Below are positions 15,392 to 61,708 of a DNA stretch of 64,000 nucleotides, one piece after another. Positions within the stretch are counted from its first letter, which is position 1, and each line of letters starts with the position of its first letter. Below the pieces are notes generated by a model that was not told where the DNA came from, made no database searches, and saw only the letters and a program-made list of their open reading frames with translations. A program made the position numbers and the translations under genes. Source of the stretch: Shigella phage vB_SflM_004; sequence record MK295205, one strand, 5' to 3'.

Positions 15392-15887
15392 TCATACACG
15401 GCTCCTGATTTGTGAACTCTCTGTGAAGTTCTTCTCTTTTCTTTCTAATTGCTTCTTTGGCATCATCAACGTTATCAAACAGACCAAGGAAATGTGTTAC
15501 ACCGTGAACCATAATCCTTGCTCTCCACTTCTGTGAAGCTTTGTTGAATGATACACCTTTTACACCAGATGTATTGTTGGAGTGTATTTTTCTATTCCAA
15601 CAATTTTCAGCTTGAGTGCAAACTCTCAAGTTCATTCTTCGGTTGTCATCAGTAATTCCGTTACGATGGTCTACACGGTCTGGTAAGAACCCCTCTGTGT
15701 AAAGAATGGCTAAATCATGAGCCATGTATGATTTTCTCTTTATGGTAATCCTGATATAACCCCTTTTATGGGGTGTTCCAGCAACTGAACCAATGACTGT
15801 CCTATTAGCCGATTTCTTCAACCAAGTAAAGACCCCTGTTTCGGGGTCATAATGAAGATACTCTTTAAGTGTCTGCTGAGTCAACAT
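15381..15887 (-). CDS. HNH homing endonuclease with AP2 domain (second copy)
   Basis: MAHDLAILYTEGFLPDRVDHRNGITDDNRRMNLRV (HNH) plus TSGVKGVSFNKASQKWRARI (AP2-like); paralogous to 2467-2958. Confidence 0.7.
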   Translation of the reverse strand: MLTQQTLKEYLHYDPETGVFTWLKKSANRTVIGSVAGTPHKRGYIRITIKRKSYMAHDLAILYTEGFLPDRVDHRNGITDDNRRMNLRVCTQAENCWNRKIHSNNTSGVKGVSFNKASQKWRARIMVHGVTHFLGLFDNVDDAKEAIRKKREELHREFTNQEPCMNED

Positions 15888-16973: not shown

Positions 16974-17831
16974 TTAGTCTTCTGTATCGAAGTCTTCATC
17001 TTCTTCGTCATCTGGGTCTGGCAAGTCTTCATCGTCACCATCATCAGAATTATTCGAAGGTTTGTGGTCTGTTGCGTCTTCTTCAGTGATTTCACCGTTA
17101 TCTTCAACGCCGTCAAGACCAAGCATAGCCAGTTCGTCTTCATCCAGTTCAGGTTCACCGTTAGCACCATTACCGTCAGTGTAAGGCACAAGAGTATCAA
17201 TGATAAACTGTTCCTGAATAGGTTTTGTCAGGACATTGTTCTCAAAAGTGTAGAAGTGAGTAGAAAGAATCACACTACCAAAAGAACCGTTACCAACTGC
17301 AATATCTGGATGAATTACATCATAGTTTTTGTCATCTTCATGTTTGTCAGATGCTTGAGCTTTGATTTTCTTCATCGGTTGTTTAACAGCTACACGCTTA
17401 CCATTTACTTCTTCAATCAGCATTACAGGGAATGACTGTTTAGCTGTCCACACAGCACCATCTTTATAAGCTGCTGCACGACTTACTTTCAAGATGTAGT
17501 AAGTGTCTGCTTCAAATGGTGGTTTGCAACCAAACTTCTCTTCGAAGTCATCTGCATCAACTGCTTCAGTAGTAACTTTATCCCAACCTTCTGGGTTTTT
17601 CTTAGACTTAGTAAACTCTTTAAACAGCTTGTTACCATCTTCTGCCAGAATTGAAACACTGTAGTTACAGTCTTTGCCTGGGAATTTCTTATCAATGGAT
17701 TTACCTTTTCCCGGACGTGGTGAAGTGTTCAGGTAATAAAACCAGACATCTTTCAGAAGGTAACGCAGAGTTTGACGTTCAGTACCGTTGTACTTCTCTA
17801 CCGGAGCTTTCATTTTAACAACTTTAGACAT
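16974..17831 (-). CDS. putative single-stranded DNA-binding protein
   Basis: 285 aa with strongly acidic C-terminal tail (DDGDDEDLPDPDDEEDEDFDTED), position in replication module. Confidence 0.5.
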   Translation of the reverse strand: MSKVVKMKAPVEKYNGTERQTLRYLLKDVWFYYLNTSPRPGKGKSIDKKFPGKDCNYSVSILAEDGNKLFKEFTKSKKNPEGWDKVTTEAVDADDFEEKFGCKPPFEADTYYILKVSRAAAYKDGAVWTAKQSFPVMLIEEVNGKRVAVKQPMKKIKAQASDKHEDDKNYDVIHPDIAVGNGSFGSVILSTHFYTFENNVLTKPIQEQFIIDTLVPYTDGNGANGEPELDEDELAMLGLDGVEDNGEITEEDATDHKPSNNSDDGDDEDLPDPDDEEDEDFDTED

Positions 17832-18049
17832 TATTTAAACCTCTATCTCAATTTATGAAGAGTACCAATTCTAATTTGTTGATACTCTATTGTCAAACAT
17901 TAATTACTGGAAGTTGTGCTTATCTTTAGAAGCTGCTTTACGTGCAGTTTTTCCAGTTCTTACACGCTTCTCTTCATAGTATTTTGCTGGTTTACCAGCA
18001 GTGGCTTTTAAGGAATCCCCAAAAACTTGTTCAAATGCTTTAGAGTGTT

Positions 18050-18343
18050 TCATGATATTCTCCGATATACTTGATATTCAAACACATTTTCTTTAATTAT
18101 AAACAGCCAACCAATATTATGTTTAGGTATAGTAATGGTGACTGTGATTATGCTGTGATGGAACTTTTCCTCTACCTCAACGCCTCCATCACATTTCATG
18201 TAGAGCATTCTATAGAACCTATCAACCTTTGTCAAACACTCTTCCTGAAATTCATTTAAACTTTTTTCTTCAAAGAAGGGTATGAAACCCTCTCTTTTGT
18301 AACTATCACTCAGTTTCAAACGGGCAGTCATCTGCATCCTCAC
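18050..18343 (-). CDS. hypothetical protein
   Basis: 97-aa ORF; a further ~50-aa basic ORF (about 17893-18050) lies just downstream. Confidence 0.3.
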   Translation of the reverse strand: MRMQMTARLKLSDSYKREGFIPFFEEKSLNEFQEECLTKVDRFYRMLYMKCDGGVEVEEKFHHSIITVTITIPKHNIGWLFIIKENVFEYQVYRRIS

Positions 18344-21297: not shown

Positions 21298-22110
21298 TTA
21301 GTGCAGTTGGTCAGTATTAATCTGTGAATACTCTTTTTCAGCCATAGCCGAGATTTGCTTCACAAAATCATCGCCAAAGTTAATGCGAAGCTTCTCTTCA
21401 ATGATTGAAGCACCAATGTTCACCAAAACATCGTTGATTGCTTGCATACTTACACCACCAGTCATGCTCTCAATGAACTCAATGCTTGTACCCATCATCT
21501 GTGAAAGCTGGATTAGTGCAACGATATTCATCATCGTAGAGATGGCTGGAACCATCAATGCAACTTTCACCTGAAGTGGCTCTATGTCAGCTACAGAATC
21601 ATTTTTTACAGCTTCTTCCAAAGAATCTTTGGTTTGCTGGATAATCTCTTTGATTCGTGGGTTTAATTCCTCTACACCCCAATCAAGCTTTTCATATCGT
21701 GACAGCTTCTCTTCCATTCGTTTCTCAAGAGCAGCCATAACAGCACTCGTTGACGAAATTAATAGGTCAATTAGCTCATTATAATCTAAGAGCAGCAGTG
21801 AGTCTTTTTCTTCAGAGGTCATGGCAATATAGTCATTTTTCTGCATCTCATAAAAAATGAACTCTGCAAGGGCATCAACACCTACAACAATAGATGCTAA
21901 AGCAAGTGTTTTGTCACACAGCATCATGTTAACCTGTTCTGCAAAAGCACCGTTATCAGACTTGTCTTTAGGCATGTTATAGCTTGCAGGCATAAACTGT
22001 TCTGTGTAGTTATTTCCACGAAGAATCATAGCCATGCTTTCTACGGCATTGATTAAGAATGCTTCGTCAATACCTTTTTCTTCAAGCATTTGTTCTACAT
22101 TGATATTCAT
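21298..22110 (-). CDS. hypothetical protein
   Basis: 270-aa ORF. Confidence 0.45.
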   Translation of the reverse strand: MNINVEQMLEEKGIDEAFLINAVESMAMILRGNNYTEQFMPASYNMPKDKSDNGAFAEQVNMMLCDKTLALASIVVGVDALAEFIFYEMQKNDYIAMTSEEKDSLLLLDYNELIDLLISSTSAVMAALEKRMEEKLSRYEKLDWGVEELNPRIKEIIQQTKDSLEEAVKNDSVADIEPLQVKVALMVPAISTMMNIVALIQLSQMMGTSIEFIESMTGGVSMQAINDVLVNIGASIIEEKLRINFGDDFVKQISAMAEKEYSQINTDQLH

Positions 22111-27011: not shown

Positions 27012-27397
27012 GTGAAAAAAGGTTATTCAAAGAGTCCTACAGTAATCTGAAGATGGGTTATCAAGGCTACTCAATACCTTGGTATGAAGATAAGAAAAAA
27101 CAGTATTCAAACCCTTTTATATATCAACCTGTAAAACTCTCTGTACTGGAGTTTTGGCATGAAACTGGAGCTACGCCATACCAATTTGACAACATGGAAT
27201 ATGCGCGTATTTGTAAAAGTCTTGGTGCAAGACAAGTTGATAATATCATTGAACATTTGAAGGATTTGTATAAAGATTTTGCTGGATACTTATACGAGAA
27301 ACAGTTTGGGGAGTGCTTAAAATACCCAGATGGGCACTCGTTTTTCACAAAAGGTTGTCTTAATGGTAACATAAAAATTGCATACAAAGGCTTGTGA
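27008..27397 (+). CDS. hypothetical protein
   Basis: ATGA start/stop overlap with upstream ORF; 129 aa. Confidence 0.45.
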   Translation: MSEKRLFKESYSNLKMGYQGYSIPWYEDKKKQYSNPFIYQPVKLSVLEFWHETGATPYQFDNMEYARICKSLGARQVDNIIEHLKDLYKDFAGYLYEKQFGECLKYPDGHSFFTKGCLNGNIKIAYKGL

Positions 27398-27507
27398 GGC
27401 ACGTAATATGATTTTTATACTAGATTGAGACTACCATACCCAGATAGCTCCTTTTCCTTATCTAGCAATGCAATGACGCACTCTGGGAATATTGTTTCTG
27501 TTGAAAA

Positions 27508-28114
27508 ATGATAAACACAGATGGTCACAAGTCTGTTCAGTTATTGCTTGATGGTAAAGGCTACCAAGCTAACCGTCTAGCAATACTATATGTGGATGGA
27601 TACCTGCCTGATAAAACCTTAGAGCGTAATGCTGAACAGCAAGCTCCAGGTTGACCATAAGAATGGAGATGGTTGGGACAATAGGTCCAAGATAAGTCAT
27701 AAGAAATATTTGAAGTTCCCTGCTGACGCTCAACTTAAATTTAAGGGTTTCGTTGCAGGATTTCAAGAGATGCTGACTCAGAAAGCTTTTACAGCATATT
27801 CTCGTGAGAACACGGTATACAACATTCCTATAGAGTTGATTCCTGATGTTCTTCTTATGCTGAAACTGCACAAAGATGTTGAGGATTTCGATGGTGAGAT
27901 TTATGCTCATGGTTGGGACTTAGAAGATATTGTTTCGATGATTAAGAATGCTGACAATCCAGACCGTCACCTTCTTAAATTCTACTGGTATGATATCTGT
28001 GACAAGACTAAATCTTGGCCTGAGCGTCGTGAAGTTTCACCATTGTACAGCTTCACAAAACTCTTGCAATCGGTCAAGAAAGAAAACTCCTTCAACGAGT
28101 GTTGTCACCGTTAA
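27508..28114 (+). pseudogene. disrupted HNH-type endonuclease
   Basis: N-terminal fragment (GYQANRLAILYVDGYLPDKT) in one frame and HNH motif VDHKNGDGWDNR in another; junction coincides with a 25-bp fragment also present near 45760. Confidence 0.4.
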
Positions 28115-28137
28115 TACTCCGGGATTAAGCAAGATGC

Positions 28138-28147
28138 ACGGGGGGGG
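28138..28147. repeat. G10 homopolymer
   Basis: cacggggggggggtt; ten consecutive G in an otherwise AT-rich intergenic stretch. Confidence 0.8.
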
Positions 28148-28494
28148 GGTTAAATTAAAGTAACTGGTGTCAAAACTGATAAACGTGGTCATGGTAAGTT
28201 CGTTGTAGAGACTCTTCCTAACGTCCCTATCTGGGTTGCCAAAAGGTGTACAGAAGATAAGTAAAAGCCCTGAAGAGTTTATCGGGAAACCTTTAACTGT
28301 TCAGTTCCAGAAGATGAGTTTCGAGCAATGATACGTTTATTATCATTGGCTTACTTCACAAGTAAACTCTTAAGTATAACATACAAAGCCAAGGTAAAAA
28401 CTATCATCTTGGTATGTTTGACACACCGTAACTGACTTAGAAAATTTGGTGAGTATACTGAGCATCATAAACCAACGGGTACTCACCAACATCA

Positions 28495-35957: not shown

Positions 35958-37553
35958 TTAGACCCGATGGGTTTGCATTTCCACTTCTCAATACTAGTTC
36001 ATTTTTGCAAAACTAAGTTGAACCAACGTTGAAACCTGTACCACCATAGAGTCTTAAAGTTGCTGTTGATGGTGTTTGTGGCATTGTTACAGTAGCAATT
36101 TTCACCCAACCACTGTCATAAGTTGTTGCATTCATAGCAGTAGCTCTTGAGAATACAGTATTAGCAACACTTTGTGTGTAGTACCTTGCATCAAAGTTAG
36201 ATACATCTGTAGGGATAACTTGACCTTCAACTCTTAAAGGTTTATTGAGATAAGCTACATCCCTTAACTCTAGATATGTATTCACTGACAAGGTGCTCAG
36301 GGAAGAGTACCTTAGTCTGCTACCTTCACCGTTACCAACATACCAACGTCGCATCAGTACTATCTTTTGCAATAACCCCGTTGCTATTCATTGGCTGGGT
36401 AGCTGTCCCACTTTGCAATGTGAAAGCAGCATCTGTAGTAACAATAGTTTGAGCACCTGTGAAAGTGTTTGCAGAGTTATTTCTTGCAAGACTACTTAAT
36501 AAAGAGCTTACAATATCTTATATAGGAGGACTTATGAGCCACCGTGGAAGAACCCATGCAGCGATGATGAAAGGTGCTTCAAAGGAGACACCAGATGAGT
36601 AGAGTCTCATAGTTGCACCTGTCATCTGGTTAAACAAGTTAACATCCTGCTTAGTCCCATCAGGTTGACCAAGATACCAAGACTCTGAACCAGAACCTGC
36701 GTAGGCTTGAACAAATACTGCACCGTTTGCTGTAGCTGGTTTCAATCTAAGCAAAGACCCATCAGAAATAATTGTCTGATAGTTTGTGAAGTTGTTTGCA
36801 CCTGAGAAGGTATTATTTTCAGTTAGTCTTGCAAATCTTTGGTCAGCAGCTATCAAAAATCGTAAGCAGAAGTTGTTTGAGAGAATGAACAGGTTAATTG
36901 ACAATTCATCTCTTTCAGGTTCTGAGAAGGTTTTTAACTAGGGAACCGGTCTTGTTGTTGTAGAAAATAACATCGTCACTTCCGAATCATTACCTACATA
37001 CCACCTATTAGCTCCAGTACTATCCTGGCTACAATAGCGGAGTATGCCTCACTTGCACCAGCAGGGGTCTTCAGTGTCATAGCTTCACCATTTGCTTGAA
37101 TAACTTGTTGGGAGGTAAAGATGTTATTTGCAGCTAGTCTTGAGTATCTTGCATCATTTTCCTCATTTGTTCTCATACCTAATTCATTAGGAGATGGTTT
37201 ATTAAGTGTGTGATAAACTGTTGCAGACCTTGAAGCATCTGCAATAGTTAGTCTAAGACCGTTTGAGTTAATTTTAAATCTTGAAAGGTAATCTGAAAAG
37301 CATTGCACAAGAACTTGTAGAATAAATCTTTTCCACCGTAAGTTAACTTAACAATACCCAGATTACCTGTCATATTCCCGCCAGCTAATTGCAAGAATCT
37401 TTCAAGTCTGAATGAAGCTAAGAAATTTGCATAGGTCATTTTACGGTCTTCATCACCTAGCATATCAGACCTTTTAATTACTCTCAAATGTAATAGGTCG
37501 TCTGAGCGAACTGTATCAATTGTGTTTAGTTCACTTAGTTTGTATTCAGCCAT
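35958..37553 (-). pseudogene. tail fibre gene N-terminal and central portions, fragmented
   Basis: N-terminus MAEYKLSELNTIDTV...LAGGNMTGNLGIVKL at 37553, then pieces in different frames (36994-37308, 36518-36904, 36013-36372) interleaved with three foreign fragments at about 36520-36595, 36840-36935, 37275-37315. Confidence 0.5.
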
Positions 37554-37598
37554 TTATCAATCCTCTTTATAGGGGCTGTGTAGCCCCTTTATAAATTT

Positions 37599-38788
37599 TT
37601 AAGCAACTCTCTTCCACACATAAACAACATAAGATGGTTGTTCAACACTGAAAGCTTGTCCACCACCAGATGCACCAGTTGTACCTGAGTGAGTGTGCTC
37701 AGAAGATTGAACTGTCACAGTACCACTGTGTGTATGTGAACCAATACCGACTGTGTGGCTGTGAGCACCAATACCGACTGTGTGGCTGTGGTCACCGGAT
37801 GCACCAGATGTAACATCTCCAATCGTCACAACGTGAGAGTGGTCACCTGCCCCATAAGTTGGTTGTGACGCATTACCAACACCTGCATCAGCCGTTGCCG
37901 TAATAGCATTCACACCACGTCCACCAACGTTCTGTACAAGAGCTTGGTGAGTGTGATTGCCAGAGTTGTTTGTATTCCTTGAACCATAGTCAAAAGTACT
38001 GGTATACTTAGTTCCATAGTCAAAGTCACTTGTAGATTTTGTACCATAATCAAACACACTCGTTGTCTTATTTCCGTGGTCGAAACTTGAAGCTGACGCA
38101 CTATTACCATGCGTGTGTCCACCACCAGTTAACAATACAGAGTGTGTGTGACTTGGAATGTTATTTTGAGAAAGTGCTACAGATGCACTACCAAAATTAG
38201 TTTCAACTGGTCTTGTGTCAGAATCATAACCAACTAATGCTCTACCTTTAGAGACAAGTTCCCAAGTACCACCACAAAGTAAATATGTAGATGGGTTTGC
38301 AGGGTTAACTGACAAATGGATAGTACCAATTGGGTAACTATTCTGGATAGCTCTATAAAGAGCATTCACAGCTTTTGCAGTAGCATACTTATCAGCATCT
38401 TCAGAGTAAGAGTTTGAATAAGTCCAGTATTGAATATTGGAGACATCTACCTGAATCTTGTTAGTATTGTGAGGGTTGTTCTTATCATTGATGTGGTTCT
38501 GAATAAGAGTATTAACTTCATCACTTGATAGAATATTAAGGTTCTGCCTAGCCTCTTCAACACTAACCACGTCTGACAAGTTATTAGCAGCCATTAATTG
38601 GAGTGCGTTAACAACATTACCAAGTTCTACGTGAACCTTTGTAACGCCGTGTGGGTTATTTCTTAAAGATGCGTGTGGAGCAAGTAATTGCTCAAGTGTG
38701 CAACGCTTATCCTCAAAAAAATGACACTTGTGTCAATAGGTAAAGAGGCTTGAGGCAATGCACTAATTTGAATTTCACCAACTGCCAT
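37599..38788 (-). CDS. tail fibre protein (frameshift at A7 tract)
   Basis: N-terminus from ATG at 38788 (MAVGEIQISALPQASLPIDTSVIF) continues in +1 frame after plus-strand A7 run at 38715-38721 into ...NNLSDVVSVEEARQNLN... and His-rich C-terminus; track reports only 37599-38594. Confidence 0.6.
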
Positions 38789-38790
38789 TA

Positions 38791-39189
38791 TTAGCTCCCT
38801 TTATATTCGTATGTGTAAAGGTTAGTCGTGCTAGTGGGTGCAGTTCCTGTTACTGTGTCAATTAATTCCCAACCATTGGAAACTAAATCAGGTTGCTCCG
38901 TAGCAAATGAACGAACCTCTCCAACCGTACCATTTACTTTGTTAAGCAAATAGTTAATAATATAGTTAAACCACTGGCGACCCATAGGCTCTCCCCTTAA
39001 TAGGCCAGTGGCTTGAATTTCTGGAGGTGGTAATACTTTAAGCTGGTTACTCCCTTCTTGTTGTGATTTATCTTTTCTACCTTTGACGATTTGAGCAACT
39101 TCTGCCATAATACCATAATCGCCACCAGTTACCATTTCTTTACCAGCAATAAAATAGTCACTGCTATTGTTTGTCTTGCTGACTTTCAT
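38791..39189 (-). CDS. hypothetical structural protein
   Basis: 132-aa ORF directly upstream of tail fibre gene. Confidence 0.4.
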
Positions 39190-40174: not shown

Positions 40175-40244
40175 GTGTTGTAACAGAGTCGTAATGGTAT
40201 CTGAGCTTGTAGGATGGTAAGAGTACTAAGTTGACAAGGTGCCC

Positions 40245-40750
40245 TTATACAATATCTTATATAGGAGGGCTTATGAGCCACCGTGGAAGAACCCATGCAG
40301 CGATGATGAAAGGTGCTTCAAAGGAGACTATCAAGAATCGTAAGCAGAAGTATTTCAAATGTGGTGTCATCTGTTGTTACTTTATTCTTTTGAGATGTTT
40401 GAGAGAATGAACAGGCTAATTGACAATTCATCTCTTTCAGGTTCTGAGAAGGTTTTCTTGAAAGGTAATCTGAAAAGCATTGCACAAGAACTTATTGACA
40501 TTGAGTATTGGAGACATCAAAAATGACACTTGCAGACGTTATTCAGCTCCAGAGTTAATTCAGGAATGTCCATTGTAGTCATGCCTAGCAAGTTCGTAAA
40601 AACCTTTAACAACGACGCTTTAAGGTCTACACACATCCTTATCGTGATTGCAAAAGACCGTACTGGAGTACTCAAAGGTGAACGTATTGATATTCTGGAG
40701 TCTGGGGAAGTGTTGGTAAAGGTTTTGACTGGACACTTCTTCGTGATTCC
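40245..40750. repeat. degraded mosaic copy of the small-gene cassette at 25700-26260
   Basis: colinear ~85 percent identical segments including the RBS and start of the 25748 gene, the SEKVFLKGNLKSIAQELIDIE segment, VVMPSKFVK segment and KDRTGVLKGERI segment, with internal indels. Confidence 0.7.
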
Positions 40751-42669: not shown

Positions 42670-42953
42670 TTTTTAATACCTTTCTTAGTAGAAATTTTAT
42701 AAGCAAGGTTATCTCGTAAATCCCCAGTTTCTACAAGAGGTGCGTTGAAACCTTTTTGTTTAATTGTAGAAGGAGCGTTAGGAGGGAGGATAGCAGTATT
42801 ACCAAAGCCTCTCTTAATTGCCTTTTGAGCATTCTTTGCAAATGCCTCTAAAGTTTCTGAGGGGTCTGTATTAAGACTATTTAGTTGCTTATAGAGATTC
42901 TTCTTAGTCTGCTCTAACAAGGTCTGTCTGTGTAACATCATAGTAATTAGCAA
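42666..42953 (-). CDS. hypothetical structural protein
   Basis: 95-aa ORF. Confidence 0.4.
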   Translation of the reverse strand: MLITMMLHRQTLLEQTKKNLYKQLNSLNTDPSETLEAFAKNAQKAIKRGFGNTAILPPNAPSTIKQKGFNAPLVETGDLRDNLAYKISTKKGIKK

Positions 42954-42971
42954 GGATTACGACGACGCATG

Positions 42972-43283
42972 TCAATCACACACTGCATAAGGGAGGCCAC
43001 TAACAGAGCTTTTAACTAGGTCGTCATATACAGCTTTAAGAGATTTGAATCTGGAAGAGTTACGTAAGTAAACACCACCAACCTTCTCATCTCCCATCTT
43101 GGCTACTTGAAAGAGTAAATATTTAAGAGCTTTGATGGCTGCTTTCTTTTCATCCTTTCCAGATTCTTGGTAGAACCACTCTAGCACCGATTGGTCAATG
43201 AGGATTTCACTGTTATTGAGTGAGGTGCTCAAGATGGAAGTCCTAGTAAAAGGGTTATTAGCGGGGTCGCCTGTATAACACAT
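42972..43283 (-). CDS. hypothetical structural protein
   Basis: 103-aa ORF downstream of capsid gene. Confidence 0.4.
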   Translation of the reverse strand: MCYTGDPANNPFTRTSILSTSLNNSEILIDQSVLEWFYQESGKDEKKAAIKALKYLLFQVAKMGDEKVGGVYLRNSSRFKSLKAVYDDLVKSSVSGLPYAVCD

Positions 43284-43304
43284 TATAACCCTCCTTTCAA
43301 GTTA

Positions 43305-44447
43305 TTACTCAGCGTCTGAACGAACGTCAACAAGCAGTTGAGGACGTGTGCAGTATGGCAGCATGTAAGAGTGAGCTTCGAAGTCAATACCTTCGTCACG
43401 GTCTTTCTCATATTCGAACACATACAGTTCCTGACCCAGAGTGTTTGCATAACCCATCTTAGGACATGGAGCTATATCTACTGTTATGATGTTGTTCACT
43501 CCACTCAACATTGCTACGTTAGGGAATGCGTGACCTACACCTACAGTTGAAGCATCAACACCATCGATGCTAACCAGAGTATGAGTCTTACCACGCTTAT
43601 CTTTGAACTTACCGTTGTACTGTACGAATACACAACCGTAGTAGAAACGGTTCATGTGAGCCTGAACACCGTCAGTTCCACCAGTTCTCAGAGAACCAGT
43701 AATCTGTTGCCAAGCAAGCGGAGTCTGCTGTGCAAGGTATGCGTCACGAATCTTAGGATGCTTGATAAGCTTGCTGAAGAAAGTTCTGTCAACAACGATG
43801 TGAATTTCTTCACCGTTGATTACAGTACCTCAACGTAATCCAATAGTTCCACGAGAAGGTTCGATATCAGAGTTCGGGTTGTCCAAGTCGAAGTAGATAG
43901 TCTTCTTAGTTACGTCGAACTGCTTGTACAGGTCTGCGTACAGAACACCGTTAGCATCGATAACTTTACCCTTCAGAGCTTGCATGAACAGGAACTCACG
44001 AGTAATATCGGAGTTGGTTCGAATCGTCATCAGCTTCTTAGCACGTACAACTGCTTCAGTAGTCAGTTCATTTGCAGTGCCTGGCTGACGAACACCCTGA
44101 ATCTCATCAGGAGTGATGCTTTCAACTTCCTTGAAGTACATCATTGGGAAGCTAATCTGACGAACACGCTCAGGAGCGCTAGTCTCAGCTTTACGGCTAG
44201 TACGGTCTAGATAAGACAGTTGCAGGTCTGCGTAGAAGTTAACGATACATACAGAGTCTGCCTGAGCTTCTTCACCTGCTGCGACCTTAGTACCATCAGC
44301 TTTCAGGGTTGGACTTACACTGTATTCTGTGCTGGCTACTGGAGCGTACTCTTTACGAGAGTGACCAGTTGGGGTGATTTCTTCCCAAAGGAAAGCATCA
44401 TTCATAAGTTCTCTGTTACCTAAATGTGTAAAACCTTGATATGCCAT
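43305..44447 (-). CDS. major capsid protein (lambda gpE-like) with in-frame TGA
   Basis: track ORFs 43830-44447 and 43305-43655 are in the same frame, separated only by TGA at 43830-43832 and 58 stop-free codons; combined ~380 aa with E-like C-terminal pattern. Confidence 0.55.
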
Positions 44448-44459
44448 TATTTGTGTTCC

Positions 44460-45407
44460 TTATTTCTTGATAAGAGTATTCAAAGCATTCTGGAGAGCCA
44501 GTTTGCGTTGGTCAGCGTTAGCATTAGCACTTGCTTCTGGAGCGGTATCTTTACCGTCATCCACTTCTGCTTCGCCGTTATTGCCAAGTTCTTCCATAGC
44601 GTTTGAGTGTTCCAGAACAGCACCAGCCGCTTCTTTCAGCTTAGTGATTTCAGAATCCTTCTCAGACATGGCAGAAGCATGGGACGCGATAGTTTCATTA
44701 AGTTTCTGGTTAGCACCTTCCATAACATTCATAAACAGAACACTCAGAGGGTTATCAAGACCAGCACCTAAAATAGCTGTTGCAGCTTCTTTTGCGTCAA
44801 ATCCAAAAGCTTCAGCAGATGCAGAAATCTTACCAGTTAAATCTGTAAGTGCTGCTTCCTGTTCCTTAGCTTTCATTTGAGCAACCTGAAGACGCAGAGC
44901 TTCTAGTTCTTGCTTTTCTTGTTCAGTCATTTCTTCACCTGAATTGTTTGTGTTTAAACTTACAGGAGCTTCTTCAGAACCTTGTAAGTAATTTAAGAAA
45001 TCATCTTGAGACATGATAGAATTAATTAAACCAAGTTCAAGAGCTTCCTGAGCAGAATAAACATTTGCCTCAGTATTCTTTACAGCTTCTTCAGAGATAT
45101 TACGTGAGTCTGCAACAAAACTAGTAAAAGTTTCGTAGGTGTCATCAATTCTCTTTTGAAGTCTATTCTTGCTTTCTTCTGATATTGCTGGTGATGGAGA
45201 ACCCATACCTTTAAATTCACCAGCCTTAATAACGTTAATTGTAACGCCATTCTTTTCAAGTGATTGACGTAGAGATTGGTGGACCATAATTACACCGATT
45301 GAACCAACATCTGCATCTGGTGATGCAATAATTTCTTCAGCAGAAGATGCAAGAGCATATGCAGCAGAGCAAGCAAACTCATCTACATAAGCAATAATTT
45401 TCTTTTT
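44460..45407 (-). CDS. prohead protease (S49/SppA-like) fused to scaffold-like domain, 5'-truncated
   Basis: protease-like sequence KKIIAYVDEFACSAAYALASSAEEIIASPDADVGSIGV...NVIKAGEFKGMGSP runs upstream of first ATG (45287) without a start codon and is cut by a stop at about 45480; C-terminal half is Ala/Glu/Lys-rich coiled coil. Confidence 0.55.
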   Translation of the reverse strand, partial: KKKIIAYVDEFACSAAYALASSAEEIIASPDADVGSIGVIMVHQSLRQSLEKNGVTINVIKAGEFKGMGSPSPAISEESKNRLQKRIDDTYETFTSFVADSRNISEEAVKNTEANVYSAQEALELGLINSIMSQDDFLNYLQGSEEAPVSLNTNNSGEEMTEQEKQELEALRLQVAQMKAKEQEAALTDLTGKISASAEAFGFDAKEAATAILGAGLDNPLSVLFMNVMEGANQKLNETIASHASAMSEKDSEITKLKEAAGAVLEHSNAMEELGNNGEAEVDDGKDTAPEASANANADQRKLALQNALNTLIKK

Positions 45408-45418
45408 GCTAAGAGAAA

Positions 45419-45610
45419 ATGAACAAAGAAGATAAGCATAAAAATGCTGTACGAACTCCTGATGGAAAGGTTCAATCCTTCATCCTGACAGTTGGTGGAA
45501 AACCGTTTCGTTGCCACTGCGGAGCAAACTGTTTTCATAAACCAGATAAAAATGATTTAGAGCTTTACGCATGTAATGCTTGCAATACTTGGTATCACTC
45601 AGAGGAATAA
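45419..45610 (+). CDS. hypothetical Cys-rich small protein
   Basis: 63 aa, CHCGANCF...CNACNTW; its 3' part recurs at 49420-49470. Confidence 0.35.
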   Translation: MNKEDKHKNAVRTPDGKVQSFILTVGGKPFRCHCGANCFHKPDKNDLELYACNACNTWYHSEE

Positions 45611-45885
45611 AATGACAATACTGTACAAACAAAATAAAGATGGCTCTTTTAACATCTGGTCATGTACTGCTGTAGGTGACAAGGTTATTACAACCTCGGT
45701 AAAGAAAATGGCAAGATGAAGAGTATACAGCAGAACCTAAAAACATCGGTAAAAAGAATGAGCGTAACGCTGAACAGCAAGCTCTCTTTGAAGTTGCTGC
45801 TAAGTATAAAAAGCAGGTTGACCGCTAAGATTGCAAAAGACCGTACTGGAGTACTCAAAGGTGAACGTATTGATATTCTGGAGTT
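45540..45885. repeat. chain of short fragments copied in order from loci at 49420-51960 and 40640
   Basis: exact or near-exact 23-50-nt matches to 49420-49470, 49725-49750, 50105-50135, 51185-51235, 51428-51455, 51925-51958, 40640-40695, in the same order. Confidence 0.7.
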
Positions 45886-45888
45886 GCT

Positions 45889-46158
45889 ATGAAGAAAATG
45901 TACAGTCTCTGGGGAAGTATTATGTGGAAAGCAGTAATTGCGCTTGGTGTTGTTTTTCTATCTGGCTGCAACCCTTCTTATGAAGATAAAAATGCTTCTT
46001 ACAGTCTCCCACCAGAGATGCAAGATTGCAGAGTATACAAGTTACATGGTGATGCTATAAGCAGAGATATTGTTGTTGTCAGATGTCCAAACTCCCAAAC
46101 AACAACATCTTATAGCTATGGCAAAAATGGTCAATCACACACTACGGTTATTGAGTGA
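45889..46158 (+). CDS. putative lipoprotein
   Basis: signal peptide with lipobox VFLSGC; 89 aa; degraded paralog at 26590-26763. Confidence 0.5.
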   Translation: MKKMYSLWGSIMWKAVIALGVVFLSGCNPSYEDKNASYSLPPEMQDCRVYKLHGDAISRDIVVVRCPNSQTTTSYSYGKNGQSHTTVIE

Positions 46159-46699
46159 GGTTTTTTCTATCAAGAACTCGATACTGCTTCTCTGAAAGAT
46201 TTGCAAACTTACAGAAACGACGAACAAAACGCATGTGTCGTGATTTTACTCGTGGTAACCATTTTGCTGCCAGAGCAGACGTGTTAGGGTCTAACAGTGC
46301 AGCTTCTAAATGCTTGAAAGCATCTGTTTCGTAACGTGTACCAACAAAGATTTTGAAGTCGTCGTAACGACCTAAGTCAGAAATCTTATCCATGATACGC
46401 AATACTTGGAACTCATCAAGTATACCATCAGAGATTGCCTTGGTAAGAGTATAACGGAACGCTTTGCGCTCTCCCATACCTTCTCGTGCATCTCGCATGT
46501 GTAACAGGATTCGAACTGCTACATCAATGTCTTCTCGCATAGCCTTGTAAAACAAGTTTGGAAGACTCTCTACATTTGACCTGCTTGAACCAGCAGCTTT
46601 GTAGAAATCTACCAGTGCAGACATTGAAGAGGTGTGGTTAACAGCACCGTTTTCAGTTAAACCTGCATGTAGATGCGAGTGTTTAAATAATTCGCTCAT
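46148..46699 (-). CDS. hypothetical protein (possibly N-terminal fragment of a larger gene)
   Basis: 183 aa; GLTENGAV...RILLHMRDAREGMGERKAFR is reminiscent of TROVE/DUF2828-type N-termini (weak, from memory); ORF ends where the lipoprotein block begins. Confidence 0.35.
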   Translation of the reverse strand: MSELFKHSHLHAGLTENGAVNHTSSMSALVDFYKAAGSSRSNVESLPNLFYKAMREDIDVAVRILLHMRDAREGMGERKAFRYTLTKAISDGILDEFQVLRIMDKISDLGRYDDFKIFVGTRYETDAFKHLEAALLDPNTSALAAKWLPRVKSRHMRFVRRFCKFANLSEKQYRVLDRKNLTQ

Positions 46700-46951
46700 A
46701 TTAATTCTCTCTCGTTAGAATGTTTTGGTGAGACAGACTCTAACGTTTGATTCAGAACCTGTCAACACCTTTTTATTATTTTTTCAGAGTTGCTACAGCA
46801 GAGAACGTTGGTTTGTTTTCCTGTGGCTTATCTCCACCTTTCTCACCGCTATTCTTACTGTCTGCTGCAATGGCTTTCATCTCACCTGCTGAGTGAGTCA
46901 TGATAGTCTTACCAGCTTCCATCATTGACTTCAGGTTTACGTTATCAACCG

Positions 46952-47146
46952 TCAAACCAAACTCTTGAGCTTGTTCGCATTGCTGGTAACAACTGCCTCA
47001 AACAGCTTTGCAGCATACTCTGCTGAGTTGTCAATAGTCAACTGTGCCTTGACCAGTGAACTTTTGTTACGAGAACCCTTTGGTCTTCCAGATGGGTTAC
47101 CTGATTGGCCTTTCTTGAACTGGCCTTTGTTAGTTCGTTTAGTCAT
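46952..47146 (-). CDS. hypothetical protein with GNPxGRPKG N-terminal motif
   Basis: KGQFKKGQSGNPSGRPKGSRNK; reading frame appears to shift downstream (46760-46950). Confidence 0.35.
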   Translation of the reverse strand: MTKRTNKGQFKKGQSGNPSGRPKGSRNKSSLVKAQLTIDNSAEYAAKLFEAVVTSNANKLKSLV

Positions 47147-47322
47147 TTCTTCACCTCTTTTAAGACTTCTTAAAAGGCTTTTAAGATAAGAGATAGATAT
47201 CCAGAAAGATATCTGTTTAAATAGCCTTTTTAGAAGAGTCTTTTAAGTAATCTTCTAAGTGTTTTATTAGGCTACACGTTGTCAAGAGGAATGTCAAGTA
47301 AATTTTTTAGTTGCAATACTTC

Positions 47323-47351
47323 TTGACTTGTTGTATGGATTACTGTACCAT
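47323..47351 (+). promoter_or_regulatory. sigma70-like promoter
   Basis: TTGACT, 17-nt spacer, TACCAT; precedes AAGGAGA SD and ATG at 47396. Confidence 0.4.
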
Positions 47352-47395
47352 CTTACTAAAGCTGTAGGTCTGCCTTTATCTACAAAGGAGACTTA

Positions 47396-47557
47396 ATGAG
47401 AAACAACACGAAATCGAAGACAGGTAATAATACCAATCACTGTAAGGAATCAAAGCGGGTAGAATTACTCTATTACAAATCCTCTGAAATTGGTTTGTAC
47501 CTATACTTTCAAAATTATAGACGACAAGAGGATTATTTATGTGTAGCTCCCAACTAG
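47396..47557 (+). CDS. hypothetical small protein (below track cut-off)
   Basis: 53 codons, strong SD AAGGAGA 7 nt upstream. Confidence 0.35.
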   Translation: MRNNTKSKTGNNTNHCKESKRVELLYYKSSEIGLYLYFQNYRRQEDYLCVAPN

Positions 47558-53765: not shown

Positions 53766-54209
53766 ATGGAACTAAAGAAATTTGAAATTGTGTCTCTTGT
53801 CAATTATACAACAAGAGAACGTGTAGCCCTAGGTACAGTCAGAGAGATTGACCACAGCCGTTACCCATTTTCAATAGAACTTGCTAATGATTTCAAAATT
53901 GGAGAGGGTGATGATGAAATGTCCTTTAAGTGTGGAGAGATTATCACTTTTGATAATGACCTTCTCTACAGAGGTATAGCACATGCTGACCACAAAGGTT
54001 TTGATATCCAGATTGCAATGTTTGATGAGAAAGATGTAAGTGGGGTTTGCACATATAGTATCCTTCAAGAAGATATTGCTAAAGAAATCTTAGAAATGTC
54101 TGTTAAGATTGATAATGCACTGGAGCCGTTGCTTCCATACTTAAAATCTGGTAAGTTATCTAGACAAGCACTTTTGAATATCATTGATATAAAAATTTCT
54201 AAAGGTTGA
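53766..54209 (+). CDS. hypothetical protein
   Basis: 147-aa ORF. Confidence 0.45.
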   Translation: MELKKFEIVSLVNYTTRERVALGTVREIDHSRYPFSIELANDFKIGEGDDEMSFKCGEIITFDNDLLYRGIAHADHKGFDIQIAMFDEKDVSGVCTYSILQEDIAKEILEMSVKIDNALEPLLPYLKSGKLSRQALLNIIDIKISKG

Positions 54210-54313
54210 CTAATACCTGACATTATGGCAATGTTAAAGGTATCCATCCTCCAAAGGGTGGTTGGAAAGATAACACTTTCTACATCGTTGAAGTTGCTTA
54301 CAAGCCACTTAAC

Positions 54314-54508
54314 ATGATTCATAAAGCAATGTTCTACACAGGGCTCCACAAAGATGTTGATGAATTTGATGGTTACAACTGGCTTATGAATGGTGGTTAT
54401 GAAGAACTTTGCAATATTCAAGAAGCTTATTACTTGAAAGCTATTGCAGAGTTACCTGACGAGTTTCAAATTGAGAGAGATGAGGATTGGAAAGATGAAG
54501 AATGTTAA
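54314..54508 (+). CDS. hypothetical protein
   Basis: 64-aa ORF. Confidence 0.35.
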   Translation: MIHKAMFYTGLHKDVDEFDGYNWLMNGGYEELCNIQEAYYLKAIAELPDEFQIERDEDWKDEEC

Positions 54509-54959
54509 AGAGGTAGTGCGTAAAGCTTTGCTTAACAACGGAACTAAAGATGATATGTACAAAGATATCGTTGCAGAATTTGGTTGTTCAAGACATGCTG
54601 CAAAGGTTCTTCTTCATAGCTTTATCTGGGAGTGTTCAGAAGCTTACATGGTTCATGCAGCTTTTTCAGAATCTCACTTACAAGCCGATAAAGACTTGTT
54701 AGCACCATATGACTTACGTGAACAAGAGCATGAAAGTGCCATTAAAACAAACACTGTGTACATGATTAGAGACACTCATACAGATTTGGTAGTAGCAACT
54801 ATCAAGATTGAGAGGGAAGTTCCTGATTGTGGTTTTGAAGGTGATATTAATAGTGCAGATTTAGACACGGTATTCAGTCGTGGTGGAAGATGGTTGGTAG
54901 GTTATGATGGTTATATCACAGTTGATTACCAACGTTCAAAGTATCAGATTAAAGTGTGA
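54495..54959 (+). CDS. hypothetical protein
   Basis: internal ATG (MKNVKEV) overlapping upstream stop. Confidence 0.4.
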   Translation: MKNVKEVVRKALLNNGTKDDMYKDIVAEFGCSRHAAKVLLHSFIWECSEAYMVHAAFSESHLQADKDLLAPYDLREQEHESAIKTNTVYMIRDTHTDLVVATIKIEREVPDCGFEGDINSADLDTVFSRGGRWLVGYDGYITVDYQRSKYQIKV

Positions 54960-55327
54960 TTATGGGACACCTACTGAAGAAGAGTTGGAAGAACTTAACA
55001 GATATGGTTCCCCATCTGAAGAGGAAGAGAAAGAACTCCGAAGAATGGGAAGCAATTACTAAGAAATGTTTTAAGGATTTGATAGAGATGAAAAAGTTTA
55101 ACTTAAAAGAAGTTGAAGGTAACTACTTAGTACTTGACTGGGGTGATATTCGGGAAGCACTCTCCGAAGAAAATCTTGACTGGTTCGAACAAATTATCGT
55201 TAATCGACTTAAGATGGAACGAGAAGATTCAGGTAAAGAGCCACTTGAAGGTATCTTTGTCAAGAAATCTTATCCGTTCTTTGAAGATACTTTGAAGAGA
55301 GATTTATGCTCATGGGTGGGACTGTAA
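54956..55327 (+). CDS. hypothetical protein
   Basis: 123-aa ORF. Confidence 0.4.
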   Translation: MIMGHLLKKSWKNLTDMVPHLKRKRKNSEEWEAITKKCFKDLIEMKKFNLKEVEGNYLVLDWGDIREALSEENLDWFEQIIVNRLKMEREDSGKEPLEGIFVKKSYPFFEDTLKRDLCSWVGL

Positions 55328-55679
55328 AGAGTTCTCTATGATTTCTCTTGGTGGACAACAAATGCTGGTTATAGAAGATATTGTCTCTAAACCAACAAAG
55401 GTGTTTGTATCAAGGTCACAGGTAAAGAAGAATTTGTTGAATATGACATACTCAGACACATTATAGATGGTTTGGGTGTTGTACAAAAATGAAGACAATT
55501 CTGACAGACACTTGCTCAAGTTTTACGATTCAGGTAAGAGAACGTCATAGTGGGTTCACACACTTCTTCCAGACTTCTAAAACTTCATTGCAAGCCATGC
55601 TTAGTGAATTGATGTAAGACTATACAGCCCCTTAAAATGGATTCGATAGAATCTATCTCATAGGGGCTTTTTATTGAGT

Positions 55680-59860: not shown

Positions 59861-60397
59861 TTATTTGTAGTAATAATATGTAAACTCATTTATCAGGCTT
59901 CCATCCTCATCATTATACTGCTTATGACTAGCCAGATAACCGCCATTAGCTAGAATTTCATCAATCAACTTTTTAGCGTCATCGTTGGGAATCCTAACAG
60001 GTTTACTAAACGGCTGTAAATAGGTACGACGAACATTTGAGAATTTAAAATCAATGGTTTTTACGTTAAGAACTTGCAACATTTTTTGAATCTCCAGTTT
60101 AGGATTGTTGGGATGTTTCCCGTTGATGAATACTTTACTTTCTTGCGCAGTCTTCAAGTGATTCTGGAAAACACCATAATCATGAGTCCTTTTATTTTCT
60201 AACATGACACCTAATTGTGACTCTTGTAAGGCTATAGCTGCTAAAGGGATTCCCCAACCTTTTCCCATCTGTCCTTCGCCATAGTTATATGCTTTTAACA
60301 TATTTACTTTCTGACTGATTGTAAGTTCTGGACAGTCAGATGCTGTAGCTAAATGTGCTGTAAAGAATAAGCACAAACCTAAAACAAATTTCTTCAT
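59861..60397 (-). CDS. secreted protein with lytic transglycosylase-like motif
   Basis: signal peptide MKKFVLGLCLFFTAHLATA; AIALQES...GVFQ resembles SLT-domain catalytic motif; a copy of the conserved leader lies in frame inside the ORF at about 60083-60130. Confidence 0.45.
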   Translation of the reverse strand: MKKFVLGLCLFFTAHLATASDCPELTISQKVNMLKAYNYGEGQMGKGWGIPLAAIALQESQLGVMLENKRTHDYGVFQNHLKTAQESKVFINGKHPNNPKLEIQKMLQVLNVKTIDFKFSNVRRTYLQPFSKPVRIPNDDAKKLIDEILANGGYLASHKQYNDEDGSLINEFTYYYYK

Positions 60398-60458
60398 TTG
60401 CACTCCTATTTTGTTAAACATGCAGACAATTATACATCATCCTGCACATTTTTCAAAT

Positions 60459-60481
60459 AAAAAAGGCTGCCGAAGCAGCCC
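60459..60481 (-). terminator. rho-independent terminator after rIIB
   Basis: minus-strand hairpin GGGCTGC-TTCG-GCAGCC followed by TTTTTT. Confidence 0.65.
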
Positions 60482-60497
60482 TTTAGGAATTTACTTA

Positions 60498-61619
60498 TTA
60501 TACTTCACGTTTACGCTGAGAAATCAGTTCACCAGCAGTCCCTACAACTACATGAAGTGCTTCTGAACCATCCCACTCTTTGATGACTTCACGGCGACTA
60601 TTCACAATCGCTGCAACTTCATAACGTGAAGCTCGCATTTTCATATCGTTGTAGTCAGTTGGTACTGAAACAACATCACGAGGATGAACACGAACTTTCA
60701 GGATAGTGTCACCAGAGAAGCTAGTTACATAGTCCCAAGCCCCAACATGCAGACCCTGAGAGCATGTTACATGACGGTTATTATCAACCATCCAACGTGG
60801 CATCTCAACAATGTTACCCAAATCGTTTGGAACTTTGCAGGTACGAGAGTCAAACAGTTTATCACTACGAGTTGTGACTTTCTTCCAACCGATGATATAA
60901 CCTTCTTCATCAATTTCAACATCAAGGTGTGATACAAAGCCCCAAAGCTGTTCTACAGAGTCTTTTGATGGGTTTTCCATCAGTTTTTCGAAGAATGCAA
61001 TCAGACGGGTAAAGCCTTCATCACCTTTCTTCATCATGTCCAGAATACGGTCTACCAGAGTTGAACGCATTTGAACAGCACCGTAGTACAGGTTATCACC
61101 TTTAATGGTCACAGCACCCTGAGTAAAGTTCTCAATGGATTTGCGAATATTCATCAGTTCAAAGGCTTTCTTGTACTCACCTGATACAACAGCCATAACA
61201 ATTTCAGTGTAGTTAGGGTGAGTTGATTCAACAATCTCTGACTCTGCACCGAAAGTCATGATAACCGAGTCACCAGTAATCATGTATTCAATCTGACTAT
61301 TATTCTGCATTGCTTCGTGCAGAGCATTTACAGGTTCTGCTTTGACTGCTTCTTTAACAGCTTTTGCAACAGGTTTCTGAGTAGCTACCTTTTTAGTTGC
61401 TTTAGCTTTCTTAGCACCCTTTGCAATATCTTTCAAAGTCTTCGCAGGTTTTGCTTTGGTTTTCCCTGTCAGTAAAGTTGCTTCATGACGCTCTACAGCA
61501 CGACCTACAGAACGAGTTGAAGTATTGTACTTCAGAGCAATTGCAGTTTTGGTAAGTTTACCTTCTTTAACCAGTGCGTAGATTTCTGCGTCGATTTGTG
61601 CTTTAGTCTTAGTAGTCAT
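60498..61619 (-). CDS. rIIB: rIIB-like protein
   Basis: colinear similarity to T4 rIIB as recalled: LVDRILDMMKKGDEGF, PRWMVDNNRHVTCSQGLHV, VRVHPRDVVSVPTDYNDMKMR; Lys/Ala-rich linker after N-terminal domain. Confidence 0.8.
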   Translation of the reverse strand: MTTKTKAQIDAEIYALVKEGKLTKTAIALKYNTSTRSVGRAVERHEATLLTGKTKAKPAKTLKDIAKGAKKAKATKKVATQKPVAKAVKEAVKAEPVNALHEAMQNNSQIEYMITGDSVIMTFGAESEIVESTHPNYTEIVMAVVSGEYKKAFELMNIRKSIENFTQGAVTIKGDNLYYGAVQMRSTLVDRILDMMKKGDEGFTRLIAFFEKLMENPSKDSVEQLWGFVSHLDVEIDEEGYIIGWKKVTTRSDKLFDSRTCKVPNDLGNIVEMPRWMVDNNRHVTCSQGLHVGAWDYVTSFSGDTILKVRVHPRDVVSVPTDYNDMKMRASRYEVAAIVNSRREVIKEWDGSEALHVVVGTAGELISQRKREV

Positions 61620-61662
61620 TTTAATATCTCTCTTTGTTGTTTAAAGTTACTTAGTGGTTCGT

Positions 61663-61691
61663 ATTCTAAGGGGCTTTTCAGCCCCTGTCAA
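61663..61691 (-). promoter_or_regulatory. sigma70-like promoter for rIIB
   Basis: minus strand TTGACA, 17-nt spacer (itself a hairpin GGGGCT-GAAA-AGCCCC), TAGAAT; about 40 nt upstream of rIIB ATG. Confidence 0.55.
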
Positions 61692-61708
61692 ACTCCTTGT
61701 CAAATACT

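Follow-up and report, generated by a model that had tools for sequence, protein, structure and literature searches.

The closest described relatives of the region analysed here belong to the Ounavirinae, whose natural genomes are of about 85-90 kb and carry ~20 tRNA genes together with syntenic core genes. Citrobacter phage Moogle (genus Mooglevirus; NC_027293 / KM236239), Shigella phage Sf15 and the Felixounavirus Escherichia phage vB_EcoM_ULIM8 (OQ850290) share the gene order capsid, gp76, protease, gp78, gp79, portal, large terminase (TerL), tRNA array and gp85, with 21 tRNAs in the case of Moogle (PMC4319497). In this last phage, gp76 is a 125-aa protein of the head module that received the label 'tail protease' in RefSeq, and the protease shows NfeD1b_N and CLP_protease matches beginning at residues 85 and 102.

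The window, by which we mean the whole stretch of 64,000 nucleotides from record MK295205 (Shigella phage vB_SflM_004), follows the Moogle head module (gp74-gp85) at 42949-45409 and 46173-47502 in the same order and orientation, and is base-for-base identical to it outside overwritten patches and block deletions. Two of these deletions alter the module deeply, one of 349/350 nt that fuses gp76 with the capsid gene, and another of ~10.5 kb whose place is taken by 763 nt of foreign sequence (Table 1). We consider it very likely that the truncation of the head module, together with the missing portal and terminase, is a sequence artefact in the form of a computational chimera, and not the sign of a decaying or otherwise unusual virus.

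The loss is readily followed in the prohead protease. The frame 44463-45479 of the minus strand matches Pfam Peptidase_S49 (PF01343) with 135.7 bits (cut-off 24.9) along residues 24-165 of its translation, covering profile positions 5-147 of 154, and the listed ORF corresponds to the C-terminal 275 aa of the enzyme. DNA identity to Moogle gp77 (449 aa) extends from the stop codon to window position 45409, equivalent to Moogle 55555 and codon ~134, and is complete outside four overwritten patches. Beyond 45409, the frame is the antisense of an unrelated plus-strand ORF and then runs into a TGA at 45480-45482. Since homology ends at 45409 and no in-frame ATG, GTG or TTG exists between this TGA and the ATG at 45287, which also rules out a non-canonical start, ~133 N-terminal residues and the start codon, present in all Ounavirinae homologues, have been lost; residues 1-133 are likewise missing in the alignment with the Moogle and ULIM8 proteins. 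The initial annotation had described a protease devoid of its 5' end and start and stopped at about 45480, which agrees with these data. As in the S49 prohead proteases of other tailed phages (ClpP/crotonase-like fold, cf. lambda gpC), the motifs ACSAAY and KAGEFK are kept, which we take to be the seat of the Ser and Lys dyad; in contrast to them, the gene is startless, lacks ~133 N-terminal residues and has two internal patches overwritten.

The major capsid gene is also broken. Its first 56 codons are deleted, and the deletion at 44209/44210 (Moogle 54007-54355) joins the gp76 fragment in frame to what is left of it. An in-frame TGA, read directly at 43830-43832, is produced by a short piece of ULIM8 sequence laid over the gene (43831-43860). 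A second overlaid piece converts the capsid motif GEANNIFEVAY into SGVNNIITVDI (43473-43505), and a third changes ELTKAFEK of the protease into SLRQSLEK (45260-45282). No phage among about 260 Ounavirinae genomes carries either of these last two variants at the corresponding site, and the patches were matched at 82-85% at best, which rules them out, for the two patches tested, as natural alleles or gene-conversion tracts.

No portal or terminase follows the protease, as was also remarked in the initial annotation, and neither was found elsewhere. Searches of the whole window by tblastn with Moogle and ULIM8 queries gave nothing but chance matches for the portal (E>1) and TerL (E>4), and the same was observed for gp78, gp79 and the tape measure of Moogle (E>1); at E<=1e-5, there was no match to gp82, gp83, gp61, gp62, gp64 or gp65, and baseplate hub gp63 was represented by a single 25-residue fragment. 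Moreover, none of the 16-mers of Moogle 55556-66065 occurs in the window, which in combination with tblastn at E<=10 rules out a displaced portal or terminase, and ARAGORN detected 0 tRNAs. The block of 10510 nt lost at this point comprises the protease N-terminus, gp78, gp79, portal, TerL, gp82, gp83, 21 tRNAs and the C-terminus of gp85 (DUF2828, annotated as an RNA-binding protein), whose 3' part is cut off; the 183-aa ORF that had been suspected of truncation is indeed the remnant of this last gene. The filler (45410-46172) is sequence of the Felixounavirus interval between DNA polymerase and DNA ligase, where the homologues of its lipoprotein-like ORF usually lie. The window ends at ULIM8 position 11500 and starts at 11731, so that both ends are adjacent on the map of this relative; the 64 kb nearly close on themselves as a ~64.2-kb circle, and therefore no space is left elsewhere for the missing genes. 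No head can be built from a region that has neither portal nor terminase, whose protease has no start and whose capsid gene is both fused and broken by a stop codon.

Table 1. Features of the head region and of the sequence replacing its missing part (window positions; overlay pieces are segments of ULIM8 substituted into Moogle sequence)
Feature	Position	Strand	Basis or remarks
Overlay piece, ULIM8 37739-37780 (100%)	43210..43250	+	Over Moogle sequence between gp74 and capsid gene
Major capsid, codons 57-367 of Moogle gp75	43305..44209	-	tblastn q57-367; Pfam Phage_cap_E PF03864; three-way alignment
Overlay piece, ULIM8 37781-37814 (100%)	43473..43505	+	Within capsid gene
Overlay piece, ULIM8 37825-37856 (100%)	43831..43860	+	Within capsid gene; 18-nt net deletion
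Overlay piece, ULIM8 37857-37872	44011..44026	+	
gp76 N-terminal part, first 79 codons of Moogle gp76	44210..44447	-	Sequence comparison with Moogle
Overlay piece, ULIM8 37873-37891	44307..44321	+	Within gp76 fragment
Overlay piece, ULIM8 37892-37913	44393..44407	+	Within gp76 fragment
S49 prohead protease, codons ~134-449 and stop	44460..45409	-	Moogle gp77 alignment, Pfam; listed ORF 44460-45287
Overlay piece, ULIM8 37914-37929 (1 mismatch)	45181..45196	+	Within protease
Overlay piece, ULIM8 37930-37957 (100%)	45260..45282	+	Within protease
Filler, ULIM8 37958-38380 (97%)	45410..45824	+	Same template, continued directly from the overlay pieces
63-aa ORF	45419-45610	+	192/192 nt identical to ULIM8 WPJ69852
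DNA ligase gene 5' end, first 214 nt	45611-45824	+	ULIM8 match
Out-of-order piece, ULIM8 37299-37390 (100%)	45826..45917	+	Duplicate of window 40646-40701
89-aa lipoprotein-like ORF, LSGC lipobox	45889..46158	+	Homologue of ULIM8 37531-37749 and Moogle gp40
gp85, first 176 of 471 codons of Moogle gp85	46172..46699	-	100% identical; listed ORF 46148-46699, 183 aa

Stretches of 16 nt or more that agree exactly with Moogle, Sf15 or ULIM8 make up 90.6% of the sequence between 26.4 and 61.7 kb. Within the head region, identity to the GenBank sequence of Moogle is 100%, with uninterrupted runs as long as 777 and 793 nt, save for block deletions and the short pieces overwritten from another phage; the divergent blocks of the tail gene are Sf15 sequence (99.3%). 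The 36 kb from ~25.5 to 61.7 kb, which include the whole morphogenesis region, are in all likelihood a mosaic composed in silico from exact pieces of three or more genomes in the databases, namely those of Moogle, Sf15 and a ULIM8-like Felixounavirus deposited in GenBank. The ~9% of the mosaic outside the three compared references could hide further parents or some real divergence.

The joints of this mosaic follow a unit of 50 nt. Of the 59 runs that match Moogle exactly over 95 nt or more, 10 have a length that is an exact multiple of 50 (1.2 expected; p=2.6e-7), with none in five control comparisons, and along a fixed 50-nt grid blocks without a single mismatch alternate with blocks of 6-25 mismatches. 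In 37817-38523, eight successive switch points between Moogle and Sf15 share one phase, 17 mod 50, for which our own estimate of the chance probability is about 2e-6. Net deletions of 300, 300 and 349 nt were observed, and the final run of the mosaic, 1547 nt without a mismatch, stops at Moogle 87995 of 87999, 4 nt short of the point, itself arbitrary, at which the GenBank record ends. Verbatim identity to database entries, with switches and lengths quantised by a software unit, is what characterizes a computational chimera. The phase of the grid drifts across the window and other deletions (618, 672 and 10510 nt, for example) are off the multiples of 50, and therefore a simple fixed-grid cut of one reference does not describe the region. 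As for the first 26 kb, no grid phase is prominent, and a slight excess of 50-nt runs was traced to codon periodicity (run lengths 3n-1).

A second signature is the ordered overlay. A total of 46 pieces of ULIM8 36.9-39.1 kb are spread across 36.5-58 kb in the order of their template (Kendall tau 0.84, p=2e-16), with two passes over 37.9-38.4 kb. Over the head region, they cover the template end to end and lead directly into the filler at 45410, with each mismatch patch of the capsid and protease genes taking up one Felixounavirus segment where the previous piece left off. They are not copies of the window's own polymerase-ligase locus, which is 70-85% identical to them, compared with 96-100% for ULIM8. 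Each piece substitutes an equal length of Moogle sequence, to which it shows 55% identity, in contrast with 26 +/- 1% for random placement, a difference that favours the merging of an alignment over a script that overwrites at random. A stretched alignment would place pieces precisely so.

The damage extends well beyond the head module. From ligase to gp102 many genes are truncated, frameshifted or bear stops; most morphogenesis genes have been lost or cut short, and many of the core genes expected of a natural Ounavirinae genome are absent or broken. In the structural genes, differences from Moogle show no preference among the codon positions (third-position share of 0.15-0.40), whereas the share is 0.6-0.95 in rIIA and in the intact genes between 1 and 25.5 kb, and the third-position excess typical of purifying selection appears only in the natural-looking part of the window. 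This Felixounavirus segment of ~28 kb runs from rIIA to the DNA polymerase, from 61.7 kb through 64 kb and 1 to 25.5 kb, and in 1-25.5 kb each gene that matches its Moogle homologue is free of stops and frameshifts; the exception is the minor tail gp34 of Moogle, which has no usable match there, the ULIM8 minor-tail gene aligning fully at 21298-22110. The segment is evidence that some real phage sequence is included in the record. Both of its junctions with the mosaic, past the stop of the DNA polymerase and in the rIIB/rIIA intergenic region, are homologously placed, as in a real recombinant. Decay of natural pseudogenes from a Moogle-like ancestor was discarded, as runs without mismatches alternate with dense patches, each of them traceable to another database genome.

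Among the explanations that invoke a real molecule, a defective genome would mean either a derivative of the deletion or defective-interfering type or else a satellite-like Ounavirinae 'mini' genome of ~64 kb that, propagated by a co-infecting helper phage, kept its replication and nucleotide-metabolism module and lost packaging and much of its morphogenesis genes. The intact genes from rIIA to DNA polymerase with their signatures of purifying selection, the near closure of the window as a 64.2-kb circle and the clustering of losses in structural genes, portal, TerL and tRNAs would all fit. However, the structural sequence left over is 100% that of Moogle or Sf15 in GenBank and no diverged lineage, parent switches and exact runs keep to the 50-nt grid, coding sequence is overwritten by ordered pieces and non-structural genes of 27-57 kb (ligase, DHFR, ThyA, holin and endolysin) are broken too. 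Public collections offered no matching contig, junction or ORF: the exact junction had no match in viral_contigs, genome_contigs or metagenome_contigs, nor was any found in look-ups of the exact products of the truncated protease, DNA polymerase and NAMPT. Such a real defective genome is thus highly improbable, and even more so its most elaborate form, a helper-dependent replicon born from hyper-recombination between a Felixounavirus and a Mooglevirus, shed of packaging genes and with the polymerase-ligase pieces as traces of template switching, to which we give hardly any credence. Faulty de novo assembly of a mixed lysate, with a Felixounavirus and one or more Moogleviruses, could bring together sequence of two genera and of three or more parental genomes by hopping between strains at shared k-mers and collapsing or skipping regions, and it could place the two outer junctions homologously. 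Chimeras of an assembly graph, unlike the 50-nt grid, switch at arbitrarily spaced k-mers; moreover, they would not overwrite stretches of 15-90 nt with consecutive pieces of a non-homologous locus and remain on the host diagonal, nor would they be expected to stop precisely where a GenBank record happens to end. Exact identity to two records from different places of isolation suggests that the records themselves were used, and we regard misassembly as very unlikely.

Less remote, though still unlikely in our opinion, is the output of a generative model or a deliberate simulation or corruption, in which memorised genomes of Ounavirinae are recited while parts are skipped or mixed. Database sequence reproduced verbatim over long stretches, abrupt changes of source, skipped segments, restarts on the same template and a gene content that is phage-like yet non-functional are consistent with it. 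Nevertheless, the return to the same Moogle diagonal after each overwrite of equal length and the location of the pieces at sites of chance similarity fit the merging of an alignment better than autoregressive generation, and the natural-looking part spans the ends of the window instead of preceding the rest as a prompt. An origin of this kind would be a sub-type of the non-biological one that we favour and leaves the verdict unchanged.

The composition of the region, its 50-nt grid, the overlay in template order and the missing essential genes are all observed; from them we infer the software step behind the mosaic, a construction from aligned reference genomes. The pieces were probably blocks of 50 nt drawn from an alignment, where blocks free of residues would have given rise to the deletions, among them the one of 10.5 kb that took away the protease N-terminus, gp78, gp79, portal, TerL and tRNA array. 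In the same way, the segment of Felixounavirus origin (ULIM8 36.9-39.1 kb) would have been drawn out over the row of Moogle and merged as short ordered pieces overwriting it. A faulty consensus, merge or reference-guided fill from an alignment of multiple genomes, or else a deliberate simulation, is the most likely origin. In this regard, the initial annotation had proposed a decaying morphogenesis region or a misassembly. Its notions of a non-functional region and of an artefact hold, but natural decay is at odds with the 100% Moogle runs, codon-blind differences and 50-nt grid, and misassembly in the sense of wrongly joined reads is too narrow a term for a pattern that looks like the merging of several reference genomes, or a consensus drawn from them, after alignment.

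Read at face value, the region could pass for a lytic phage in decay, for a scrambled gene or for a satellite-like mini-genome, but no report of this sort is warranted. The TGA of the capsid gene, the 'broken fibres', the 'fragment chain' and the absence of portal, terminase and tRNAs share a single cause, and therefore all findings at about 25.5-61.7 kb should be discounted. The practical value of the case lies in quality control, for which the codon-position spectrum of mismatches, the periodicity of exact runs, multi-parent painting and the colinearity of overlay pieces can be reused as flags of chimeras.

Altogether, the truncated head module is with high probability a by-product of how the sequence was constructed and no feature of a living phage. 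In the Felixounavirus DNA polymerase-DNA ligase region (ULIM8 36.9-39.3 kb), to which the filler and overlay pieces are 96-100% identical, the sequence forms a locus, whereas here it is scattered over 21 kb as 46 ordered pieces of ~15-420 nt that overwrite unrelated genes. Defective interfering and other deletion-derivative phage genomes share with the window the loss of packaging and structural genes and an intact replication module, but real deletion derivatives show clean junctions in one continuous parent. In the window, instead, the filler is scrambled, comes from another genus and from a locus without homology, and lies between overwritten flanks, and there are three parents from the databases, overwrites in template order and the 50-nt grid.

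BLAST searches against phage genomes place the window in the Ounavirinae, the Felix O1-like myophages, and we compared it with the complete genomes of Citrobacter phage Moogle (a Mooglevirus; NC_027293/KM236239, source of the gp numbers used here), Escherichia phage vB_EcoM_ULIM8 (a Felixounavirus; OQ850290) and Shigella phage Sf15. Judged by identity, more than one lineage is represented: positions 1-24000 share 95-96% identity with ULIM8 and similar E. coli Felixounaviruses and only 78-80% with Moogle, and at 40.7-45.4 kb, in the morphogenesis region, identity to Moogle is 93-98%. All genes from NAMPT to DNA polymerase (0.6-25.5 kb) are intact, as is rIIA (61.7-64 kb). From the ligase locus (~27.6 kb) to ~57 kb many genes carry truncations, frameshifts or interruptions; outside the head module, ligase, DHFR, ThyA, holin and endolysin are among them. 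Most morphogenesis genes are either cut short or missing altogether. The native ligase locus (27300-28340) has four stops and retains only residues 99-356, at 55% identity to the Moogle ligase; the 5′ end of the gene is found instead at 45611-45824. Within the Felixounavirus-like part there are also two perfect Moogle matches in surroundings only ~80% identical to that phage, one of 497 nt across an HNH endonuclease region (15402-15898, Moogle 17609-18105) and one of 215 nt near nrdG (5361-5575, Moogle 7929-8143), which could reflect a natural exchange associated with homing endonucleases or further contamination from the Moogle record.

In Moogle, ULIM8 and Sf15 the minus strand reads gp74, major capsid, gp76, S49 prohead protease, gp78, gp79, portal, TerL, gp82, gp83, tRNA array and gp85. 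What the window keeps of the protease is colinear with Moogle 54356-55555 as far as 45409, where similarity stops in codon ~134 of 449; upstream, the frame is the antisense of a plus-strand ORF and meets a TGA at 45480-45482, with no in-frame start codon between the two points. The initial annotation was thus right that the head module is truncated and its protease lacks a 5′ end. The S49 domain is present, yet this is not a functional protease gene, nor does the region qualify as a functional head and packaging module.

Main features at the truncated end of the head module
Feature	Position	Strand	Description
S49 peptidase ORF	44460-45287	-	PF01343, 135.7 bits
Filler	45410-46172		763 nt standing in for a 10.5-kb gap
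gp85 fragment	46172-46699		First 176 codons, 100% identity to Moogle, truncated; next after the filler

The reported absence of portal and terminase also holds. Neither portal nor TerL, nor gp78, gp79, gp82, gp83, the tape measure, gp61, gp62, gp64 or gp65, gave a significant tblastn match in the window, where the baseplate hub gp63 gave one 25-residue fragment only and no 16-mer of Moogle 55556-66065 occurs. There are likewise no tRNAs in the window; Moogle carries 21 (PMC4319497). It had been suggested that portal and terminase be sought elsewhere in the genome. On the ULIM8 map, though, the window ends at 11500 and starts at 11731, so that with ~230 nt between them the 64 kb nearly closes and the missing genes cannot lie elsewhere. 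The window is approximately a whole circularly permuted sequence of 64.2 kb, ~24 kb short of any Ounavirinae genome. A second large block, ~6.5 kb long, is gone at 40228-40742 (gp61, spike, hub, gp64, gp65, tape measure and chaperone), and a copy of small ORFs like those of ULIM8 36940-37424 bridges the loss; a 47-55-nt piece of the hub gene (Moogle 45037-45091) is embedded at 40352-40406. The capsid gene is without its first 56 codons, is joined at 44209/44210 to codons 1-79 of gp76, with 349/350 nt deleted at the joint, and contains an in-frame TGA at 43830-43832. As biology, the region is unable to make a head. As for gp76 itself (NC_027293 54216-54593, 125 aa), RefSeq calls it a tail protease and GenBank KM236239 a hypothetical protein; its site between prohead protease and capsid, at which one would expect a head protein of the decoration or scaffold type, makes the RefSeq label look doubtful.

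A single Felixounavirus segment, ULIM8 36940-39143 (ligase together with the small ORFs that separate it from polymerase), is scattered over 36509-57959 as 46 pieces that follow the order of the template (Kendall tau 0.84, p=2e-16), each of ~15-420 nt and overwriting Moogle- or Sf15-derived sequence; template 37.9-38.4 kb is passed twice, with a restart at 40272-40744. In the head region they tile ULIM8 gaplessly (37739-37780, 37781-37814, 37825-37856, 37857-37872, 37873-37891, 37892-37913, 37914-37929 and 37930-37957), and the template then carries on into the filler, whose positions 45410-45824 correspond to ULIM8 37958-38380. The mismatch patches of capsid and protease are exactly these pieces, one of which creates the capsid TGA, and for the two patches compared, one in the capsid and one in the protease, none of about 260 Ounavirinae genomes carries them in place. 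The pieces substitute equal lengths of Moogle sequence, to which they are 55% identical (26 ± 1% under random placement), the pattern expected where a global alignment draws one sequence out along another and a consensus merges the two. This overlay is the "fragment chain" of the initial annotation, and it accounts for the damage to the endolysin and to the tail, fibre and capsid genes.

Codon positions point the same way. In the intact part, 60-95% of mismatches to ULIM8 or Moogle fall in third positions; the structural genes differ from Moogle evenly across the codon (third-position share 0.15-0.40). The head region follows the Moogle GenBank sequence without a mismatch for as many as 777 and 793 nt at a time, every difference being confined to short patches, and blocks diverging from Moogle in other regions are Sf15 sequence (99.3%); 90.6% of 26.4-61.7 kb is covered by exact matches, 16 nt or longer, to one of Moogle, Sf15 and ULIM8. 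Moreover, of 59 stretches of 95 nt or more that match Moogle exactly, 10 have a length divisible by 50 (100 once, 150 four times, 200 once, 250 three times and 450 once; 1.2 expected, p=2.6e-7), and five control comparisons gave none. Zero-mismatch blocks alternate on a fixed grid with blocks of 6-25 mismatches, net deletions measure 300, 300 and 349 nt, and between 37817 and 38523 each of eight consecutive switch points from Moogle to Sf15 or back fits phase 17 mod 50, for which we estimate a chance of about 2e-6. Exact Moogle and Sf15 blocks alternate on a 50-nt grid at 37817-38700 and generally across 25506-61694. The first 26 kb has no grid, and run lengths there show only the 3n-1 periodicity expected of synonymous divergence. 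The mosaic extends from immediately downstream of the DNA polymerase stop (~25506) to the rIIB/rIIA intergenic region, its last stretch (60148-61694, rIIB and upstream) being a 1547-nt perfect run of Moogle 86449-87995 that stops 4 nt short of the arbitrary GenBank record end at 87999. The adjoining rIIA is Felixounavirus-like (~94% to ULIM8, 62% amino-acid identity to Moogle).

Five independent lines, namely codon blindness, verbatim database sequence, the 50-nt quantum, the ordered overlay and the record boundary, therefore support a computational origin and rule out natural decay; of the two readings originally offered, decay or misassembly, it is the artefact that stands. A conventional assembler chimera is a less likely form of it, the 50-nt grid and the equal-length overwrites speaking against joining by an assembler. 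That we are dealing with a genuine phage genome, defective or satellite-like, is very unlikely. The sequence does not behave as a natural Ounavirinae genome, and its verbatim identity and 50-nt quantisation are those of a computational chimera. The junction sequence was not found in viral, genome or metagenome contig collections, and exact-sequence look-ups of three products (truncated protease, DNA polymerase, NAMPT) gave no record.

A 36-kb stretch was built computationally by drawing 50-nt units from several reference genomes; blocks that held only gaps probably turned into deletions, and a row smeared along the alignment into the overlay. As for the tool, consensus calling or merging of an alignment, filling guided by a reference, a simulation and a generative process are all candidates. 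The truncated protease, capsid TGA, broken fibres, "fragment chain" and missing portal, terminase and tRNAs are symptoms of one cause, and the truncated head module is no real feature. Set beside the head module of Moogle, the region is that same module minus blocks.
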